A DNA stretch of 64,000 nt from Patescibacteria group bacterium (GTDB taxonomy: Bacteria > Patescibacteriota > JABMPQ01), in assembly GCA_018818965.1 (NCBI GenBank), contig JAHJQX010000014.1, positions 6,178 through 70,177 of the forward strand. The letters run 5' to 3'. The position numbers and the translations under genes were made by a program. Positions 15,964 through 41,140 of this stretch are shown here, in pieces (position 1 is the stretch's first letter; every line of letters begins with the position of its first letter). The notes below the pieces were generated by a model, which was not told where the DNA came from, ran no database searches, and saw only the letters and a program-made list of their open reading frames with translations.

Positions 15964-16354
15964 TAGCAGCAATGCTAGGAGTATAAATTATACTATCAAG
16001 CTCTCTTGTGGTCGCGAGAGAGTTTTTTTGTCTTCTCTGGAAAGGGGCGTTAGCGCTCTTCTCCAGGTAAGATAAAGCCCTGAACATTATAACTAAGCGG
16101 GTTCTTCCCTCATTGCGCTTTTTGCGGAGAGTGCAGCGGGAGAAGAATCCCGAGGCGAGGAGTGCCTCGAAAAAAACTTCGTAATACTCCGGGGAAGCAC
16201 CGGGGCGCGCTGAGGCAGCGCGTAAAATTGCCTAGCAAAATCACGAGCCAGTAAAGGCCCAGCCCTGCACGATGCGGGGTGGTTGGGAGCGACACTGACT
16301 GGCTGAGAATCTAGAGCCCCACGTGAATACGGGGCAATCAAGAGGAGCGAGAGA

Positions 16355-16816
16355 ATGTTTTCCGCGCTGATCAACGAGTTGAACGGTATCTGGGGTGGTG
16401 GTCTCGAGGCAGTGCTGGGGTTCGTCGGGCTGCTGTTGGCGGCGCCGGCGCTGTGGTGGTGGCTGCTGCCGCGCTATACGGCGGTGTGCTGCCACGACGG
16501 GAACCGGTGGTTGTCGGACTGCCCGGGGACGTGGAGCAAGGCCCGGGGCGTTGCCGGCAACGACCTGGCCCTCTGGGTCAAGGCGTACGCCGCGCAGGTG
16601 ACGACTGGGAAGTTTCTCCAGCCGCACCAGGCCCGTATCCCCGAGAACCCCGTCCCACGGCGGCTGAAGGTGGTCCTGTTCGGCGAGCAGCGCGGCGTGT
16701 ACTATATCGTCGGGATCAAGATCCTCGACGAGAAAATACTCTCCGAGAAGTCCGACCGAAGCAACACCCCGGTCGTCAACTTTGAGGACGAGGACGAGTA
16801 CCTTCCGCTCCGCTAA
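16355..16816 (+). CDS. Hypothetical protein with N-terminal TM helix (GC-rich islet 1)
   Basis: GAGGAG SD 8 nt upstream; hydrophobic segment LGFVGLLLAAPALWWWLL; high-GC codon usage. Confidence 0.45.
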   Translation: MFSALINELNGIWGGGLEAVLGFVGLLLAAPALWWWLLPRYTAVCCHDGNRWLSDCPGTWSKARGVAGNDLALWVKAYAAQVTTGKFLQPHQARIPENPVPRRLKVVLFGEQRGVYYIVGIKILDEKILSEKSDRSNTPVVNFEDEDEYLPLR

Positions 16817-17261
16817 CGAACCGCCTGCTCCCCCCCAGAGACGTTCGCCAGGCTGACACCCTGGTCGCAGTCAACTGTCCCCGGCGCACGCAGCTGCGTT
16901 GGGTCTACCTCCCCGCTCACCTGTGAGGTGTGAGCGACTACGGGAGCCTACCAAATCCTCATTGTTCTTTTGACCCTTCACCCGGAAGCGCACTATCAGA
17001 GTACGCTTCCCCTTCCAGAGGATAGAAATAAGCTTCTATTCTCTGGAATAGTCATGAGTTACGATTCGTGACTACAAAAAATAGAAAAGTAATCCCTGGG
17101 CTGATCTAGGGATTATTGGTGTACCAACTTCACTCTCTGATTTGCTCTCTAGAAAGCGCAAACCAGCCGTGAACTTGGCACAAGCCAAGTCGAACATTTT
17201 AATCTGAGAATCGAAACCGACAAACAAAGCGCCTATTAAAAGACGCGAACAGGAGAAACTG

Positions 17262-19544
17262 GTGGCTAGCATTACGAGACAGGGTCCGCAGTACCACGGC
17301 CAGAGTGTGGAAGACCTCCGCACTTGGGCAGTCATCGAACGGCTGCCCTGGCTGGTGGAGGCCCTCGGCTTGACGGCCGGGGCGATCTGTGGATCCTTGG
17401 AGGAGGCGCTGCGGCGCCAGGTATACGGCTTGGGTAGCGCCGACGAGCTGCCCGCTCCCATTGACTGGGAGCGTAACGGTATCATCATCTCCCCGCCGGG
17501 GACGGGCAAGGGCATGGCCTGCTTCGTGGAGGCACTTCTGCACTACGAGCGGGTCTACGTGCTCGTGCCCTCGGTGATCCAGGCGCACAAGCTTGAGGAG
17601 AGCTTGGACGTCTTGTTTCATCGGGATCTGGGTGGCTGTGCAACGAGTCAGCGCAAGGCGCGGGGTCTGATCCGGGTCATCACGACCGGCATCTTCCACC
17701 AACTGGTGGCGGATGAGGACTCACAGCTGTGGGAGGACGGCACGGTTCTGATCGTGGACGAGGCGCAGCGGATTCTGGAGAACGATCCGGAGACGGAGCT
17801 GATGATCGGCACCTGCGCCTCGCAAGGGGTGCCGGTGATGATCGTCTCGGCGACGATTGCTCCGGGGACGTTGCCTGAAGTCTACGGTCACGGCGCGAGC
17901 GAGCCGGCTCAGGTCTACAGCCTGGTCAAGAACATGCACCCGGTGGAGATCGAGGTCACCACTGGCCGCGAGATCACCCAGGTGCTGTCCGAGACCGAGG
18001 AGCTGCTCGCTGACGGTAAGACGACGCTGGTCTTCTGCGCCTCGCGGCGCGAGGTGGCGAGCGTGGCTGATCTGCTGGCTCAACTGGGTGGAGCGACGGT
18101 GCGTGTTACTGGCGCTCATCAGGTGGAGGAGCAGATCGCCGAGATCGAGTCCGCTCAGGCGACCGGTCTGCCGGTGTTCGTGGTGGCCACGCCGGGCACC
18201 ATGGACAGCTCGGTGACGGTGCCGGGACTCTCCTGCGTCGTCATCCAGGACATGCGTTACAGTGTGGACTGGAATAAGTTTGGCGTGATCGAGCGTCGGC
18301 ACGAGACGCTGCCGGTCAACCACATTGTCCAGATGATCCGCCGGGTGGGTCGCATTGCCCGCACGGATGGTCAGCGGGACAAAGTGATCGTGGTTTCGAG
18401 CTGTCCCCGCCCGGAGCTGATGGTGGAAACGCCCCAGTTCCAGCCGATTTCCGGCTGCTCGCCGCACACTCAGATCGAGAACCTCCTGCTGCGCGCCGTG
18501 CAGTTTGACATCCCCTTCGCGGATGTCCACGACTACATGGTTAGCAACTTCGCAGAGGAGCGGATCGAGAAGACGGTGGCGGCGTTGCTGGAGCACGGCA
18601 TGATTGAGCGGGTGGACGACCCTTCCGATCCCGACGGCTTCGAGCTGACGGACAAGGGAGAGTTAGTCATCTCGCTGCCCTTCGAGTATCGCTGGTCGCG
18701 GTTGATCGTGGAGGCGCCGGAGGAGCTGCAGCTGTGGCTCACGCTGGCGGCCGCCTGCGGTCATGTCCGGGACCTGGAGATGCACGAGGAGCAGTCACTC
18801 GACGTGGCTGGTCACCAGCGCTCCGAAGTGCTGCGCAAGATCGCGCTCATGGTCGAGTACCTCGGCCTGGAGCACGACCGCGAGCAGCGCGACGAGGCCG
18901 ACGAGCGGGGACTGTCGTTCCGACGGATGGAGCAGGCAGAGACGCTGTTCGATCTGGCAATGGAGGCCTTGGAGCTGGACTGGGATGTAGACGAGCTGGC
19001 GGTGCCCGAGGGCGAGGAGATGGAGACGCTGCTCTTAGAGATCGTCACCGGCGGGCTGCGGACGGGTTTGTACAAGCTGTACTTCCCGCATCGTGGCGAC
19101 CGTGGTGGTTGGTCTGAGCCGCGGCCTACTCCTGACCTGGACGGCCAGTTTCGGCGTTTCTTCGTCGATGACAACGGCCTGGCTCTCTCGCGGTACGCCG
19201 AGGGCGGGGTTTGCGCCGTTGTCGCCTCGCCGACCTGGTTCACGTCCAAGAACGGCGGCCCCTGCGCCAACCTGGACGACGTGACCATCGTGCCGAGCGA
19301 TCTGCTGCCGCAGCTGGTAGCGGACTTGGCCAAGCGCGAAGGTTGGTTCCAGGTGACCTTCGAGGAGGGCGAGTTCCGGGGCCAGACCAGGCTCGAGGCC
19401 CGCGGCGCCGACGGGTGGACGATCTACCTGCCCAGCCGGATGGACAACGAGCCGGAGGTGGGTGTGGCCTACTGGTGCTCCCCCGATCGTCAGATCGGCC
19501 GGGGCATTCAGACGGTCTGGATCCACTTCCCGGTCAACGGCTAG
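17262..19544 (+). CDS. SF2 DExH-box helicase, NS3/DEAH-like, with degenerate Walker A (GTG start)
   Basis: Motifs read by eye: I PPGTGKG (no canonical GK[ST]), Ia VLVPSV, II DEAQ, III SAT, IV-like LVFCASRREVASVADLL, V VVATPGTMDSSVTVPG, VI QMIRRVGRIAR. AGGAG 6 nt before GTG. About 350-aa C-terminal extension of unknown fold. Confidence 0.7.
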   Translation: MASITRQGPQYHGQSVEDLRTWAVIERLPWLVEALGLTAGAICGSLEEALRRQVYGLGSADELPAPIDWERNGIIISPPGTGKGMACFVEALLHYERVYVLVPSVIQAHKLEESLDVLFHRDLGGCATSQRKARGLIRVITTGIFHQLVADEDSQLWEDGTVLIVDEAQRILENDPETELMIGTCASQGVPVMIVSATIAPGTLPEVYGHGASEPAQVYSLVKNMHPVEIEVTTGREITQVLSETEELLADGKTTLVFCASRREVASVADLLAQLGGATVRVTGAHQVEEQIAEIESAQATGLPVFVVATPGTMDSSVTVPGLSCVVIQDMRYSVDWNKFGVIERRHETLPVNHIVQMIRRVGRIARTDGQRDKVIVVSSCPRPELMVETPQFQPISGCSPHTQIENLLLRAVQFDIPFADVHDYMVSNFAEERIEKTVAALLEHGMIERVDDPSDPDGFELTDKGELVISLPFEYRWSRLIVEAPEELQLWLTLAAACGHVRDLEMHEEQSLDVAGHQRSEVLRKIALMVEYLGLEHDREQRDEADERGLSFRRMEQAETLFDLAMEALELDWDVDELAVPEGEEMETLLLEIVTGGLRTGLYKLYFPHRGDRGGWSEPRPTPDLDGQFRRFFVDDNGLALSRYAEGGVCAVVASPTWFTSKNGGPCANLDDVTIVPSDLLPQLVADLAKREGWFQVTFEEGEFRGQTRLEARGADGWTIYLPSRMDNEPEVGVAYWCSPDRQIGRGIQTVWIHFPVNG

Positions 19545-19572
19545 CTCTTTGTTTCTACTCTCGGGGAGAGAG

Positions 19573-19605
19573 TCAACGCTCTTTCCCCGTTTTTTCCCAG
19601 CTTGG
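19573..19605 (+). terminator. Intrinsic terminator after helicase (GGGGAGAGAG-tcaacg-CTCTTTCCCC + GTTTTTT); includes the right direct-repeat copy
   Basis: 10-bp stem with one G-U pair, followed by a T6 run. Confidence 0.6.
19574..19587. repeat. Direct repeat GGGAGAGAGTCAAC (right copy) flanking GC-rich islet 1
   Basis: Exact 14-mer match to 15950-15963. Confidence 0.7.
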
Positions 19606-19902
19606 CAATATTAATTGCTGAGCTGAGAAGAACTTTGTAAATAAAGAAAATGTGACGATACTACTTAAGGTGTTGTTGGGATTCTAAAGCTAGGATAGTG
19701 TTCTTGCTCCTGCTTCTAGCGGGAACAAACCTCTTTCCCAGAGGAACACTGTGCTAATTTTGGTAGGGAATTGAACCTCTAACTCAGTTTCCATCATCTC
19801 GACAGCATTTTGGGTGGTATTTTTTATTTCCCCTTGCCTATTTTCTCAAACCACGTTATCATACCCCCAGACAAAAAAACTTTTGAAAGGAGACAATTTA
19901 TT

Positions 19903-36060: not shown

Positions 36061-37257
36061 ATGGAATTGTCGTCGCAGCAGCAAATTTTAGAAGTCGTTG
36101 AGAAAAGCAAAAAAGTATTGCTACTCACTAGACAGCATCCTACGGAGGATGCTGTTTGCAGCCTAGTTGCCCTTGGTTTGTATTTGGAAAAATCTGGCAA
36201 AGAGGTTGATATGGTTACCCAAGGCCCTATCCCACCGGTTCTCGGTTTTATTCCCGAGACGAAGAGGGTTAAAAACGATGTTCAGCAGAACAAAAGTTTT
36301 GTCGTTTCATTGGATACTTCCAATACCAAAGTGGCTCAATTCAGTTACGATTTTGACAAAGACGGCAAGAAGCTAAATATTTTCATTACTCCTGAAGGTG
36401 GTAGTTTTACCCCTGATCATTTATCCACCAAAGTGTTGGGCTTTGGCTATGATTCTGTTTTCATTATTCATAGTGTTGATTTTGAATCACTTGGACCAGC
36501 TTATACCAATAACGCTGACTTATTTTACGAAACTCCTGTGATTAATATCGATCGCAGTAGCTCTAATGAGCAATTTGGCGAAGTAAATTTAGTTGATACT
36601 ACGGCCTCCTCAATTGCCGAAATACTATACGAACTATTTACTACTTTGGGTGAAAAGGTAATCGATGAACGGATTGCTACTTGTTTGTTGACAGGCATTA
36701 TTGCTTCCACGCGCAGTTTCCAGAATAATAGCGCCACTCCCAAGTCTTTTAACATCGCGGCTAAATTGATTGCCACCGGGGCTGATCAACAGCAAGTGAT
36801 TAATAGTTTGTACAAGAATCGTTCACTCTCAATGTTAAAATTGTGGGGGCGAGCTTTGGCAAGGGTCAAGCATGATCCAGATAAAAAGTTGGCCTGGAGC
36901 ATGCTGGGACAAAAGGATTTTGTTAGTTCTGGAGCGCAGGTAAAGGACTTGGAAGGGATTACCGATGAGATTATGACATCAGTGCCTAATACTAATATTG
37001 TAGTTGTTTTGTATGAAGCAATTCAAGGAACAGCTCGCGCGCCTGAGCAGGCGATGACAGAAAGTGAAGAGTTGGACGTAAATACCGGCGGTGTGGAAAT
37101 ATTGATCAAATCTAATGAGGAGAACTATATTAACCAACTGGCTGAGATTTTTGATACCGCTAGCCGCAATGGCGTGATGAGGATCAAAATTAATGGTATT
37201 AGTCTAGCGGAGGCGGAAAAAGATGTCCTGGAAAAAGTGAGGGGGATTATAAAGTGA
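36061..37257 (+). CDS. NrnA-like DHH/DHHA1-family protein with degenerate catalytic motifs
   Basis: Alignable by eye to NrnA (LLTRQHPTEDAVCSLVALG vs HxxPDxDAxGS; DTTASSIAEILYELF vs DTSASSVSEMIYELY) but no intact DHH or GGGH motifs. Confidence 0.45.
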   Translation: MELSSQQQILEVVEKSKKVLLLTRQHPTEDAVCSLVALGLYLEKSGKEVDMVTQGPIPPVLGFIPETKRVKNDVQQNKSFVVSLDTSNTKVAQFSYDFDKDGKKLNIFITPEGGSFTPDHLSTKVLGFGYDSVFIIHSVDFESLGPAYTNNADLFYETPVINIDRSSSNEQFGEVNLVDTTASSIAEILYELFTTLGEKVIDERIATCLLTGIIASTRSFQNNSATPKSFNIAAKLIATGADQQQVINSLYKNRSLSMLKLWGRALARVKHDPDKKLAWSMLGQKDFVSSGAQVKDLEGITDEIMTSVPNTNIVVVLYEAIQGTARAPEQAMTESEELDVNTGGVEILIKSNEENYINQLAEIFDTASRNGVMRIKINGISLAEAEKDVLEKVRGIIK

Positions 37258-37309
37258 TCGAATGTTAGATTGTTTGTTCATTGTTCAACCGTAAACCACT
37301 GGAGGGAAA

Positions 37310-37471
37310 ATGGCCAAAGGGAACAGAACGAAGAAGAAGAAACAGAGCAGCCGGGTGACGTGCGGCAAGTGTAATCCCAATCGAGCGGGAAGGAAGTACA
37401 CCGTTACTCCTCCCCAGGAGTGTCCAAACTGTCAGCATCTGACAGGCACCTTCTACCGGAGAAAGGATTAG
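37310..37471 (+). CDS. Zinc-ribbon mini-protein, 53 aa (GC-rich islet 3)
   Basis: Hand-called: GGAGGG SD 4 nt before ATG; two CxxC pairs (CGKC...CPNC); Lys-rich N-terminus. Confidence 0.45.
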   Translation: MAKGNRTKKKKQSSRVTCGKCNPNRAGRKYTVTPPQECPNCQHLTGTFYRRKD

Positions 37472-37481
37472 AGAGGATAGA

Positions 37482-37880
37482 ATGGGAGACACGAGACGAC
37501 GTTTGCGACTAGTATTGAAGCATCTGGGAGCTGTAATCTTGTCGGTGGCTGCCTTGTTGATCCTGTTATGTCTGACGGTTGACTCCATGGAGCCCTGGAT
37601 TCCGCTGTCGGCTGCAATCGCAGGGATCGTCTTTTTCTTGGTACGGTCGCGGATCCCACCATACATTCCGGGGGAGAGGGTGGTAGTTTGCGTCGACAAG
37701 CTCGGCCGGTATTCGGTAGAGGATGCCTGGTTAGCGATGACCGGTTCGATCAAGGGCCGCCTGATTATCGTCACCAACGTATACGGCGTTGATTTTGCTG
37801 TACCGGTTGAATTCGTGATCCTCGCTGATCAAGTGGCGGGAGACCTAGTACCTTCTTCGGCCGATGATGGCTCTGGGTAG
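37482..37880 (+). CDS. 2-TM membrane protein with C-terminal bacterial PH-like domain (bPH_2/DUF304-like) (GC-rich islet 3)
   Basis: GAGAGG SD; two N-terminal TM helices then a ~70-aa beta-rich domain; architecture matches bPH_2 family. Confidence 0.35.
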   Translation: MGDTRRRLRLVLKHLGAVILSVAALLILLCLTVDSMEPWIPLSAAIAGIVFFLVRSRIPPYIPGERVVVCVDKLGRYSVEDAWLAMTGSIKGRLIIVTNVYGVDFAVPVEFVILADQVAGDLVPSSADDGSG

Positions 37881-38046
37881 CCAGAACATCTGCTAATAGT
37901 GGATGTTTTTTTAATATAGAGACCGCAATATTTAATTATCAATATAAAATTAGTTTAGCAGCAACCTGAGTAATATTTCTCGATTGACAACAAAATCTTC
38001 CGGTATTACTCTTAAAGCCAATGTACGTAATTAATTAACAAAACAG

Positions 38047-39357
38047 ATGGCACAAAATCCACATCAAAATGCTCTCAAGCAGCTAGAGGATGTTGCTAAA
38101 AAAATAAAGCTAGATAAAGAAATCTTTGAAATTCTATCGAAACCTCAGCGTATTATCATGATGCAGATTCCGGTGAAGATGGATTCTGGTAAAATGCAAA
38201 TGTTCGAAGCCTATCGAGTAGAGCATAACAATGCGCGCGGTCCTTATAAAGGTGGCATTCGTTATTTCCCCCAAGTAGATCTCAATGAGGTCAAGGCGCT
38301 TGCTCACTGGATGTCTCTGAAATGTGCTGTTACTGGTATTCCGATGGGAGGTGGTAAGGGTGGTATTATCGTTGATCCTCATCAATTGTCAGCTGGTGAG
38401 TTGGAAAGATTATCCCGTGGTTATGCTCGGGCGGCGGCTGATTTCCTCGGACCGAAAAAAGATGTTCCGGCCCCTGACGTTTACACCAATGCTCAGATCA
38501 TGGACTGGATGGTGAGCGAGTTCAAGAAAACCAAGGAAAAAGAGCTGGGACGAAAATTAAAAGCTAGCGAATATTTACCAACTCTCACAGGTAAATCGTT
38601 GCGTGGTGGTGGTTCTAAGGGCCGCGATATTGCTACCGCTCAGGGTAGTGTTTTTGTGCTGGAAGAGGCACTCAAGACTTTGAAAATAAAAAAGAGCACA
38701 GTGGCTATTCAAGGATTTGGCAACGCCGGTTATGTAGCGGCTAAGATACTACACGATAAAGGATTTAAAATTGTTGCCGTTAGTGATTCCCGCAAAGCTT
38801 TTTACTGTGAGGACGGATTAGATCCTGACAAGGTAATGAAATACAAAGAGAAGTGTGGTACGGTCGGTCTCTGTGATTGTAAAGCGGGTGGTAGCAAGAC
38901 TTGTAAATGTAGTGGTGGTTGTAATTGCCAGGGGTGTAAGTATATTCCGCAGAGTCAGATTCTCACCCTTGATGTTGATATTCTAATTCCGGCCGCTCTG
39001 GAAAACCAAATCACTGGAGCCAATGCTGGAAAAGTAAAAGCTGACATTATCCTTGAACTGGCCAATGGAGCCACTACGCCGGAAGCTGATGCAATTCTGC
39101 GACGAAAGAAGATTATAGCTATTCCTGATATCTTGGCCAACGCTGGTGGGGTGACAGTTAGTTACTTCGAGTGGTATCAGAACATGAAAAATGAAAAATG
39201 GTCAGAGGATAAAGTAGCCCGTAAATTATCTCCATTGATGAAACGGTCTTTCCGGGAAGTTTATAAGTTAGCCCGACAGTATAAAACCGATCTGCGTACT
39301 GGCGCTGGCATATTGGCAGTAAAACGGTTGGAAGAGGCGATTAAGAAAAGTAGATAA
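38047..39357 (+). CDS. gdh: NAD(P)-specific glutamate dehydrogenase with unusual Cys-rich insertion
   Basis: PYKGGIRYFP...GGGKGG catalytic Lys region, GFGNAGY Rossmann motif; inserted CDCKAGGSKTCKCSGGCNCQGC at 38854-38937. Confidence 0.85.
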   Translation: MAQNPHQNALKQLEDVAKKIKLDKEIFEILSKPQRIIMMQIPVKMDSGKMQMFEAYRVEHNNARGPYKGGIRYFPQVDLNEVKALAHWMSLKCAVTGIPMGGGKGGIIVDPHQLSAGELERLSRGYARAAADFLGPKKDVPAPDVYTNAQIMDWMVSEFKKTKEKELGRKLKASEYLPTLTGKSLRGGGSKGRDIATAQGSVFVLEEALKTLKIKKSTVAIQGFGNAGYVAAKILHDKGFKIVAVSDSRKAFYCEDGLDPDKVMKYKEKCGTVGLCDCKAGGSKTCKCSGGCNCQGCKYIPQSQILTLDVDILIPAALENQITGANAGKVKADIILELANGATTPEADAILRRKKIIAIPDILANAGGVTVSYFEWYQNMKNEKWSEDKVARKLSPLMKRSFREVYKLARQYKTDLRTGAGILAVKRLEEAIKKSR

Positions 39358-39388
39358 GATATTGGTCTTAAGGTTACGGATATAAAAA

Positions 39389-39414
39389 CCTGTGCTCAGC
39401 GCGCAGGTTTTTTA
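39389..39414 (+). terminator. Intrinsic terminator after gdh (CCTGTGC-tcagc-GCGCAGG + T6)
   Basis: 7-bp stem with one G-U pair, T-run; the ORF-track GTG start of the next ORF falls inside this hairpin. Confidence 0.7.
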
Positions 39415-39481
39415 TTCAGTAAATTATGGTATACTAGCAAGCAAGTTAGAAACCTTACTGGAGTTTGTTTTAATTATTATT

Positions 39482-41140
39482 ATGACTGATGATCTATCCA
39501 CTCAATCATTTGAGGATGAAAAATCAGAACAGTTAAGCGAGAGGCTTGATAAGATTAAACTGGCTCGCTTAGAGAAAGAAGCTCTTGGCAAAGCGATGGT
39601 ACGTGGCATGCCTTATATTAATTTAAAGGAAACCCCAATTGCCAAGGATATCCTAGCTTTGATTTCTGAAAAAGAGGCTCGAAAATCGGGAGCTTTATCA
39701 TTTTATAAGGTTCAGAACTTATTACGAGTGGCAGTGTTGAATCCAGATAATGAGAAGACCATCGAAACTGTTGAGAAATTGGAACAAGAAACTGGCTTTA
39801 ATACTTCCATGTTTCTTACTTCAGAGCCGAGTTTTAATTATGCCCTGGAAATATATAAACAAGTAGTTGCCCCCAGAAAGAAAGAAGAAATTGGCATCGA
39901 GGCAGAATCTTTGCAGTCAGCCCGGGAACAAATCAAAAATTTAGCTGATTTAAAAAAGAGAATTAACGACGTATCAGTAACGGAAGTAATTAGTATTGTT
40001 TTAGCGGGAGCGATTGTCGGCAAAGCCTCAGATATCCATATTGAACCGGAGGAGAAGAGTATTAAGTTGCGTTATCGTATCGACGGCATTTTACACGACA
40101 TCGCGAAGCTTGATAAGGAGGTTTACAATAAACTATTATCTCGCATTAAATTAGTGGCCGGACTTAAAATAAATGTCAATGATGTACCTCAAGATGGTCG
40201 AATTACGGTTAAGTTAGAAGGGGGTGATATCGATTTACGAATTTCTATTCTTCCTGCCGGCTATGGTGAAGCAGCGGTGATAAGACTATTAGGCATAGGG
40301 GCAACCGATCTTGATATCACCAAGCTTGGTTTTCGTCCCCGGGAGCAAGAGCTTCTACTTAAGCTTATTCACAAACCGACCGGGCTGATTTTAACCACTG
40401 GCCCGACCGGTTCTGGTAAAACCACCACTTTGTATGCCTGTCTGAACCAGGTTAATTCTCCCGAGGTAAAAATAATTACCTTAGAGAATCCGATCGAATA
40501 CCGTCTAGAAGGAATCCAACAGACACCAATCAATCCTGAAAAAGGCATGACTTTTGCCGGTGGCTTGCGATCTATCCTACGACAGGATCCTGATATCGTA
40601 ATGGTAGGGGAAATTAGAGATGAAGAGACAGCTGATATTGCTTCCCAGGCAGCCTTAACGGGTCACTTGGTGTTTTCTACTTTACATACTAATGATGCTG
40701 CTGGGGCTATTCCCCGTCTTCTTAATATGGGGCTGCGGCCGCACTCGGTGGCACCGTCTCTGACAGGAGTAATTGGGCAACGCTTGGTTAGGCGTCTTTG
40801 TCAGAAATGTCGGCAGTCATATCAGCCATCAGCTGACGAGGCTAAAAAGATCCAAGAAGAATTAGGGAAAGACTCTCCTCCGAAGGGCGTCAAAAAACTA
40901 TACAAAGCAAAAACTAAGGGTTGTTCAACTTGTGACGGTATTGGTTATCAGGGTCGAGTTGGTCTCTACGAATTGATTGAAATAACCAAGGAAATGAAGG
41001 AGTTAATTAACCAACGAGCATCATCTTTGGAAATAGAAAAGCTGGCGCAAAAGCAGGGGATGATCACGATGCGGCAGGATGGATTATTGAAAGTTGTTGA
41101 AGGATTAACTAGCCTGGAGGAAATAAATAGGGTTGCGTAA
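39482..41140 (+). CDS. pilB: Type IV pilus assembly / type II secretion ATPase (PilB/GspE family); start reassigned to ATG at 39482
   Basis: N-terminal GSPII_E_N-like domain, Walker A TGPTGSGKTTT, Asp box, Walker B, His box and tetracysteine CQKC...CSTC. Confidence 0.85.
   Translation: MTDDLSTQSFEDEKSEQLSERLDKIKLARLEKEALGKAMVRGMPYINLKETPIAKDILALISEKEARKSGALSFYKVQNLLRVAVLNPDNEKTIETVEKLEQETGFNTSMFLTSEPSFNYALEIYKQVVAPRKKEEIGIEAESLQSAREQIKNLADLKKRINDVSVTEVISIVLAGAIVGKASDIHIEPEEKSIKLRYRIDGILHDIAKLDKEVYNKLLSRIKLVAGLKINVNDVPQDGRITVKLEGGDIDLRISILPAGYGEAAVIRLLGIGATDLDITKLGFRPREQELLLKLIHKPTGLILTTGPTGSGKTTTLYACLNQVNSPEVKIITLENPIEYRLEGIQQTPINPEKGMTFAGGLRSILRQDPDIVMVGEIRDEETADIASQAALTGHLVFSTLHTNDAAGAIPRLLNMGLRPHSVAPSLTGVIGQRLVRRLCQKCRQSYQPSADEAKKIQEELGKDSPPKGVKKLYKAKTKGCSTCDGIGYQGRVGLYELIEITKEMKELINQRASSLEIEKLAQKQGMITMRQDGLLKVVEGLTSLEEINRVA

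Follow-up and report, generated by a model that had tools for sequence, protein, structure and literature searches.

Cysteine-Rich Loop Insertion in a Patescibacteria Glutamate Dehydrogenase, a Candidate Metal-Thiolate Module beside the Coenzyme Pocket

In the glutamate dehydrogenase (GDH) hexamer, domain I forms the core and domain II is a peripheral Rossmann domain (PMC7326016). In hexameric GDHs of the type of Thermococcus profundus 1EUZ, Pyrococcus furiosus 1GTM, and Thermotoga maritima 1B26, a surface loop of domain II is short and free of Cys (GSVKDFPGATNI). AtGDH2, a Ca2+-stimulated plant isoform, carries an EF-hand-like motif, 265-DFNGGDAMNsdEL-277, preceded by the stretch in which AtGDH1 and AtGDH2 diverge most (PMC7326016). 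The GDH studied here is encoded in a 64,000-nucleotide stretch of DNA from a Patescibacteria group bacterium (assembly GCA_018818965.1, contig JAHJQX010000014.1, positions 6,178 to 70,177 of the forward strand), referred to below as the window. Its domain II loop is 18 residues longer than that of the 1EUZ type and is rich in Cys. Judged from sequence, it represents a previously undescribed thiolate-rich loop in a GDH, and a wider, likewise unreported Cys4 hairpin appears to be present in many Patescibacteria GDHs. The features concerned are as follows.

38047..39357, + strand: GDH gene, host of the insert; a 436-amino-acid (aa) open reading frame (ORF) with both Pfam GDH domains
38806-38808, + strand: codon of C254, the ninth Cys (FYC, in strand 251-258), 16 residues upstream of C270
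38854..38937, + strand: Cys-rich segment C270..C297, with 8 Cys in 28 residues (codons 270-297)
38884..38910, + strand: nested insertion A280..C288 (AGGSKTCKC), with C286 and C288; a MAFFT gap in short-loop GDHs
38923..38961, + strand: C-terminal anchor N293..I305, with C294 and C297 and, within it, the DSSP strand 297-300

A sequence-only reading of the window, made earlier without database searches, had taken the host to be a canonical GDH, and this was borne out. Both Pfam domains were matched, ELFV_dehydrog_N at residues 33-161 with 185.6 bits (cut-off 25.3) and ELFV_dehydrog at residues 188-434 with 240.4 bits (cut-off 23.4). The top PDB sequence match was 1euz, the T. profundus enzyme (E = 1.2e-115), and the nearest solved relatives were the hexameric GDHs of T. 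profundus, Pyrococcus, and Thermotoga (E = 1e-115 to 1e-108), which have the two-domain fold in common with the window enzyme (template modeling [TM] scores of 0.88 to 0.91) at 44 to 46% identity. The AlphaFold2 (AF2) model, built with 120 homologues as input, had a mean predicted local distance difference test (pLDDT) value of 94.4 and was matched by Foldseek to T. profundus GDH (8zmu/1euz) with a TM score of 0.91 and a root mean square deviation of 1.9 A. The active-site lysine motif was intact, I98-P-M-G-G-G-K104-G-G-I-I-V-D110-P111, and fits the PROSITE PS00074-type pattern, [LIV]-x2-G-G-[SAG]-K-x-[GV]-x3-[DNST]-[PL]. Residues K104, G101, G102, G105, and G106 were unchanged across the 120 homologues, all family-invariant residues were kept, and the Rossmann GxGxxG dinucleotide fingerprint was found as 223-GFGNAG-228. 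With its motifs intact, its fold matched, and the family-invariant residues retained, the host is presumably an ordinary, active enzyme of the hexameric type. Its score against the NCBIfam model GdhA_Arch (NF040817), 462.5 bits, was under the equivalog cut-off of 750, so that it counts as a family-level member only, without a curated equivalog assignment; the NCBI name for the identical protein is Glu/Leu/Phe/Val dehydrogenase, from "Patescibacteria group bacterium."

Within this enzyme, the insert was placed by alignment between the strand that follows 223-GFGNAG-228, with 241-IVAVSDS, and the strand 309-DVDILIPAA, the position that the sequence-only reading had given. Against 1euz, it appeared as gaps of 2 + 16 = 18 residues inside "GSVK--D---FPGATNI," and the Cys cluster was absent from every solved GDH, so the earlier description of a true insertion stood. 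The coordinates 38854-38937 correspond to codons C270..C297, and the peptide reported at that time was found letter for letter in the ORF. The count of 9 Cys in 30 residues needed correction: the quoted stretch, K269..K298, holds 8, and the ninth, C254, lies upstream. The insert Cys residues are at positions 270, 276, 278, 286, 288, 292, 294, and 297, with the spacing C-x5-C-x-C-x7-C-x-C-x3-C-x-C-x2-C. The segment is ∼29% Cys, with three CxC and one CxxC and with spacers of Gly, Lys, and Ser, and residues 271-297 contain no aromatics (no F/Y/W/H). In window ORFs of at least 150 aa (17,966 residues), Cys accounted for 0.94% of residues; at that frequency, the probability of 8 or more Cys in 30 residues is ∼3e-10 per position, or ∼5e-6 expected occurrences over all 17,966 residues. 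The other window ORFs had at most 4 Cys per 30 residues.

In the AF2 model, residues 271-296 were coil, with mean pLDDT values of 56 to 77 over 10-residue blocks. No family was matched when the excised 39- and 57-residue insert segments were searched against Pfam with hmmscan at E ≤ 10, and neither the Rfam nor the tRNA scan gave a hit within the GDH gene or close to it. Two further candidates were set aside. A tandem-duplication origin, suggested by the units LCDCKAGG, TCKCSGG, and CNCQG, gave no hit in Tandem Repeats Finder at a minimum score of 30, and the likeness among the CxCxxGG units lies in the Cys and Gly codons only, which leaves this origin a conjecture. The ORFs in other frames over the insert (38855-38986, + strand; 38955-39140, − strand) are short, and the coding frame that encloses them is strongly conserved.

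The sequence-only reading had proposed a search for the same insert in related GDHs, and it was found in ten other distinct proteins (P0002-P0011), 62 to 90% identical to the window GDH. Two of the carriers (L001 and L002) are GTDB species representatives labeled "Parcubacteria group bacterium." The insert was retained in frame, with diverged nucleotides, in independent assemblies from ENA, JGI, Logan, and NCBI, and it is therefore not an assembly artefact. Selection was examined on a codon alignment of the coding DNA of the 11 clade genes. Over the rest of the gene, the proportion of synonymous differences (pS) was ∼0.79 across all clade pairs, that is, saturated, and the proportion of nonsynonymous differences (pN) was 0.146. 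At non-Cys positions of the insert, pN was 0.37, which puts spacer evolution at 2.5 times the rate seen elsewhere in the gene. At six invariant Cys (254, 276, 278, 286, 292, and 294), pN was 0, while their codons switched freely between TGT and TGC. Fixed Cys among relaxed spacers point to ligand or disulfide positions rather than to neutral expansion. The idea that the insert is a tolerated low-complexity expansion of an insertion-prone loop, with no ligand or function, could draw on its low AF2 confidence and on the other lineage-specific inserts known at this site (in L074, P0172, P0179, and P0216), but six Cys invariant against saturated synonymous sites, within spacers evolving 2.5-fold faster, largely exclude it.

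The remaining Cys were more variable. C288 was replaced by Ser in two clade sequences, and C297 was missing in three. An extra Cys occupied position 270 in the window GDH and two other sequences and position 275 in six; a CCxC motif was seen in six members. Cys totals including C254 were 9, 9, 8, or 7, with a minimum of 7. Position 254 was Cys in all clade members vs 4/187 other GDHs, and C254, which lies in the strand ahead of the helix that precedes the loop, is a probable extra ligand. P0003 and P0004 both lacked C270 and C288.

Rarity was examined with a HMMER profile of the 91-residue region, built from the 11 clade members and searched against 1.84 billion representatives of 50%-identity clusters. 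The top representative was the clade member P0010 (160 bits, E = 1e-42), and the next scored 72.7 bits; by this difference, the long form is limited to a single sequence cluster in the library. Among solved GDHs, none had the long loop, a Cys4 loop, or a Cys-less loop of Cys4 length, and literature searches for GDH insertions in CPR/Patescibacteria that are Cys rich, bind zinc, or resemble metallothioneins gave nothing relevant, for the long loop as for the Cys4 loop. Other elaborations of the same loop were encountered. In the 242-aa fragment P0216, the loop carries 8 Cys, differently spaced (IYC...SCMINC...MCETDCNQCETC); that of L074 extends to 48 residues and repeats a "CD" unit, and in P0172 and P0179 the Cys triad is followed by long runs rich in Pro and Ser. 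Such sequences show the loop to be an insertion hot spot. The profile of the coenzyme-domain region also matched residues 1170-1258 of a 5827-aa protein (P0200; 54 bits, E = 1.9e-9), which suggests an ELFV-type domain inside a very large multidomain protein.

For 120 homologues from databases and 80 GTDB loci, loop lengths were measured between the positions that correspond to Y266 and P301 of the window GDH. Four classes were distinguished.

Canonical loop, 18 residues, GSVQGFxGxKNIT: ∼40% of the closest 120 GDHs
Short Cys loop, ∼27 residues, GCYCVGSVCDC: Uhrbacteria, Kaiserbacteria, Daviesbacteria, Levyibacteriota, Nomurabacteria, Paceibacterota, and others
Cys-poor loop, ∼27 residues, GVYYKGSVCTD: metagenome-assembled genomes (MAGs) labeled archaeal (Aenigmatarchaeota, Archaeoglobus, Methanosarcinales)
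Long Cys loop, 36-38 residues, window clade: one narrow Parcubacteria clade

The core of the short Cys loop, which is 9 residues shorter than that of the window GDH, is the triad CxC-x4-C. Exactly four Cys were present in the region in 79 of the 85 non-redundant triad-bearing GDHs. The fourth occupied one of three places: in the helix, one turn before the loop, in 44 sequences; two residues after the third Cys (+2) in 20; and ∼12 residues downstream, in the column of window C297, in 18. These positions were combined in only two cases. In P0112, the first triad Cys was lost and a Cys was present at the C254 column instead, so that the total was again four. A constant number of four Cys with a movable fourth is what a four-coordinate site predicts, and the behavior of structural Cys4-type sites, in which ligand number is kept as positions change, was thus found in the short-loop relatives. 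Outside the clade, Cys at columns 254 and 297 co-occurred with an odds ratio of 6.5 (p = 7e-4, uncorrected for phylogeny).

For the short loop of P0078 (annotated Candidatus Uhrbacteria), AF2 predicted a confident 10-residue hairpin (block pLDDT of 90 to 92) with strands 291-293 and 296-298, C290-Y-C292 being on one and C297-D-C299 on the other. Short and long loops share one insertion site, and the CxC...CxC of the P0078 type aligns with C276/C278 and C292/C294 of the window GDH. Where the short loop has four Cys, the window clade has 9 more residues in the turn, 6 to 8 Cys in the loop, and C254 in addition. Outside the clade, the alignment was gapped in 187/187 sequences at column 286 and in 186/187 at column 288. 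The short Cys4 hairpin is probably the evolutionary precursor of the window insert, and by alignment the window cluster is a nested elaboration of the Cys4 loop, not a de novo acquisition. The statement of the sequence-only reading that classic GDHs have no such cluster stands for the solved and textbook enzymes; it fails for many Patescibacteria GDHs, which carry the smaller Cys4 loop. In an unbootstrapped neighbor-joining (NJ) tree computed without the loop columns, the clade was placed beside P0012, which has no loop, and P0013/P0034/P0039, whose CCxC loops are like those in P0006-P0011; this placement beside CCxC-loop GDHs is no more than suggestive. GDHs 47 to 53% identical to the window enzyme, with the Cys-poor loop, were found in archaeal-labeled MAGs (L003, L026, L027, and L041), some Cys4-loop GDHs were in bins labeled Gammaproteobacteria, and several loci were labeled "uncultured Gammaproteobacteria" or "Saccharibacteria." Such archaeal and Gammaproteobacteria labels could reflect inter-domain transfer or unreliable bin labels.

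To place the insert relative to the coenzyme, the plant enzyme was mapped through 8owm (chain index 235-302, offset 3), a mapping that reproduces A288, A289, L290, and V293 of PMC7326016. In AtGDH1, adenine N1 is bridged by water to the Pro274 carbonyl (PMC7326016). By sequence mapping, AtGDH 265-277 corresponds to window N293-I305, and AtGDH1 Pro274 corresponds to window Q302. This correspondence puts the end of the Cys cluster in the segment predicted to border the adenine pocket, which in plants is the proposed Ca2+-binding segment. The likeness to AtGDH2 is that the same domain II surface loop carries a lineage-specific putative metal site, in the plant enzyme with metal-responsive activity. 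The AtGDH2 motif would offer oxygen ligands for Ca2+ with no added length, whereas the window loop would offer thiolates, and the two show no sequence similarity. Window N293-I305 (NCQGCKYIPQSQI) contains no Asp or Glu and does not conform to a PS00018-type EF-hand. A link to the GTP site of animal GDH, through Lys289 and Glu292 on the helix ahead of this loop, was considered and set aside, as the literature consulted did not name those residues.

The reading that we favor, with a probability of about 0.5, takes the insert for a module that binds metal through thiolates, on the coenzyme-domain surface of an otherwise ordinary GDH. The insertion, its conservation, the pattern of ligand counts, and its position in the sequence are observed; metal binding, the identity and stoichiometry of the metal, and any effect on activity are inferred. 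The ancestor would have been a short beta-hairpin of the form C-x-C, turn, C-x-C, or one in which the fourth Cys came from the neighboring helix or strand; in the many Patescibacteria GDHs that have such a hairpin, a single metal ion, probably Zn(II), is most likely bound tetrahedrally by the four Cys. The turn would then have gained nine residues with a further CxC pair in a single, narrow lineage of Parcubacteria, and new Cys at 254, 297, and either 270 or 275 would have raised the potential ligands to 7 to 9. Given the minimum ligand count of 7, there would be room for about two metal ions, probably Zn, held either in two separate sites or together in a small cluster with bridging thiolates. 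The extra Cys of the clade, found at either 270 or 275, would be "movable ligand" behavior inside the clade as well. The bound metal would fold and rigidify a Gly/Lys-rich loop that is probably disordered otherwise, and the C-terminal anchor of the loop would run into the segment lining the adenine end of the coenzyme pocket. A rigidifying metal and an anchor at the adenine pocket would make the primary role structural; since thiolate sites are oxidizable, a secondary sensitivity to oxidants or metal supply is possible. Zn is preferred because the enzyme is cytoplasmic, because CxC and CxxC are typical of Zn thiolate sites, and because the composition is metallothionein-like.

Structural Cys4 zinc loops are known from the lobe of medium-chain alcohol dehydrogenases and from the LID of Gram-positive adenylate kinases, and other lineages have loops of equal length in which the Cys are replaced. 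Like the GDH loop, they are surface loops of nucleotide-dependent enzymes stapled by four Cys, and the archaeal GVYYKGSVCTD would be the Cys-poor counterpart. Unlike it, they belong to other folds and positions, have CxxC-type spacing, and have no nested second Cys set. In Gal4-type Zn2Cys6 proteins, the spacing is CX2CX6CX5-12CX2CX6-8C; the insert spacing does not fit this, and no PF00172 match was found.

Several points weigh against a metal-thiolate module. AF2 gives the insert no defined structure; the pLDDT of 56 to 77 is expected if the fold needs a metal that is absent from the model, and it would be equally expected of a floppy loop. Pfam finds no metal-binding family in the excised insert. 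Two disulfides or a 4-Cys iron-sulfur (Fe-S) cluster would also agree with a count of exactly four Cys, and the joint loss of C270 and C288 in P0003 and P0004 resembles, at the sequence level, the loss of a disulfide pair. The archaeal loop of the same length, with 1 or 2 Cys (GVYYKGSVCTD), indicates that the hairpin can exist without a Cys4 site. The preference for Zn over Fe or Cu enters as a prior, taken from general biochemistry.

The sequence-only reading had offered metal, Fe-S, and redox roles equally. Cys-specific purifying selection makes a ligand or redox role likely, as proposed, and the Cys pattern gave no positive support for Fe-S. Under an Fe-S reading, the Cys would bind a [2Fe-2S] or [4Fe-4S] cluster or Fe(Cys)4, which in an anaerobic organism would sense redox state or oxygen or serve a structural purpose; this is considered unlikely. 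The strict four-Cys count of the short-loop relatives fits a four-ligand cluster as well as it fits Zn, the modeled hairpin would present its four Cys on one face at roughly the spacing of Fe-S ligands, and Patescibacteria are mostly anaerobic fermenters. On the other side, neither the ferredoxin spacing CxxCxxCxxxCP nor the radical-SAM spacing CxxxCxxC is present in the insert, no Pfam Fe-S domain was matched, runs of CxC are typical of Zn/Cu thiolate proteins and not of Fe-S proteins, and the 7 to 9 Cys of the clade are more than one cluster needs. An electron-transfer role is implausible, as NAD(P)H donates two electrons and the window GDH has no flavin domain.

A metal-free thiol/disulfide switch, in which the Cys would be reduced in the active enzyme and disulfides formed under oxidative stress, within CxC or across strands, would alter coenzyme binding or domain closure, is likewise judged improbable. 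It could draw on the dominance of an even Cys count (4) in short loops, on the loss of C270 together with C288 in P0003/P0004, on the co-occurrence of C254 and C297 in GDHs with canonical loops, and on an anchor beside the adenine pocket. The clade totals of 9, 9, 8, or 7 are mostly odd, however, and the fourth Cys of the short loops moves among three distant positions, which is easier for ligands on one ion; moreover, the C270/C288 co-loss is a single event in two close sequences of one lineage. GDH is cytoplasmic, where permanent structural disulfides are less likely, and thioredoxin genes in related genomes point the same way. In the redox-switch zinc center of Hsp33, CxC-x27-32-CxxC, the CxC and CxxC chelate one Zn and an oxidant triggers the switch. 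Its pairs are comparable to C292-N-C294-Q-G-C297 of the window GDH, in an unrelated protein and fold; evidence of switch behavior like that of Hsp33 was not found in the analysis of the window GDH. A regulatory version of metal binding, in which the Cys hairpin and its 7-9-Cys form would be a device holding a polynuclear Zn, Cu, or Fe thiolate cluster by the adenine pocket, with oxidation or metal loss switching GDH activity, is regarded as doubtful.

Still less probable is metallothionein-like buffering, storage, or sensing of Zn, Cd, or Cu(I) by a polynuclear thiolate cluster, with the GDH serving as a metal sink or being metal regulated. The insert shares with metallothioneins a Cys content of ∼29%, CxC/CxxC repeats, spacers of Gly, Lys, and Ser, the lack of aromatics, and low predicted order when metal free; its CxC density, the CCxC motif of six clade members, and a Cys count of up to 9, which would fit an M3S9-type cluster, could be read in favor of buffering. 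Metallothioneins, however, are small free-standing proteins, while the insert is embedded in a 436-aa enzyme, has no match to a Pfam metallothionein family, and with 7 to 9 Cys could hold only a small site or cluster. The likeness to metallothioneins is one of composition, and the insert is not itself a metallothionein. With Cys counts that vary from 7 to 9, the members cannot all be fitted by one cluster type, the long form is limited to one rare clade, and the neighboring genes encode a DHH protein and a T2SSE ATPase, with no metal-homeostasis genes adjacent.

The gene order in the long-insert clade is conserved (window 36061-41140; L082-L088) and consists of a DHH-family protein gene, small ORFs, the GDH gene, and a T2SSE/PilB-like ATPase gene, followed in the window, L081, and L085 by a thiolase-like gene. 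No metal or redox genes were adjacent to the GDH gene at the clade loci, so the context says nothing on function; a thioredoxin gene was seen four genes away in two relatives only. Between the DHH and GDH genes, a 53-aa ORF (37310-37471, + strand) has two CxxC pairs (CGKC...CPNC) and is zinc-ribbon-like. It has no Pfam match, longer ORFs on the opposite strand overlap it, and relatives have unannotated small genes there.

Two other features of the GDH itself were recorded. A second length difference from T. profundus GDH is a Lys/Glu-rich extension of 7 residues (gaps 4+3) in the inter-domain linker, at window 38524-38580 (GDH residues ∼160-178, KKTKEKELGRKLKASEYLP). The coenzyme-specificity signals are mixed, with GFGNAG at 38713-38730 and SDS at 38782-38790. 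Phe at P2 of GxGxxG is of the NAD type, and SDS after the second strand is the NADP consensus (PMC7326016); dual coenzyme specificity is possible on these signals. Elsewhere in the window, an unusually stop-poor stretch at 16241-19621 contains a 760-aa ORF (17262-19544, + strand) overlapped by at least 6 ORFs of at least 120 aa on both strands, and Rfam detected no RNA family there. A tRNA-Ala (anticodon CGC) at 1-71 was the sole Rfam/ARAGORN match in the 64 kb.

GDH is among the most thoroughly studied of enzymes, yet both the long loop and its Cys4 precursor are without a solved structure. For recombinant work on Cys-loop GDHs, metal would have to be supplied and the proteins handled anaerobically. 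Surface loops stapled by Cys are common in enzymes, and if the loop is a structural staple only, it would be a modest example of lineage-specific zinc stabilization. If it binds metal, a thiolate site would have been added to a GDH at the loop where plants have their proposed Ca2+ site, and by this convergence the loop would stand out as a hot spot of regulation next to the coenzyme pocket. The metabolic repertoires of Patescibacteria are very small; were their GDH metal or redox sensitive, it would join the few post-translational controls known for central nitrogen and carbon metabolism in this group, and as a regulatory device the loop would provide a direct redox or metal input into the glutamate catabolism of these reduced-genome, host-dependent bacteria.

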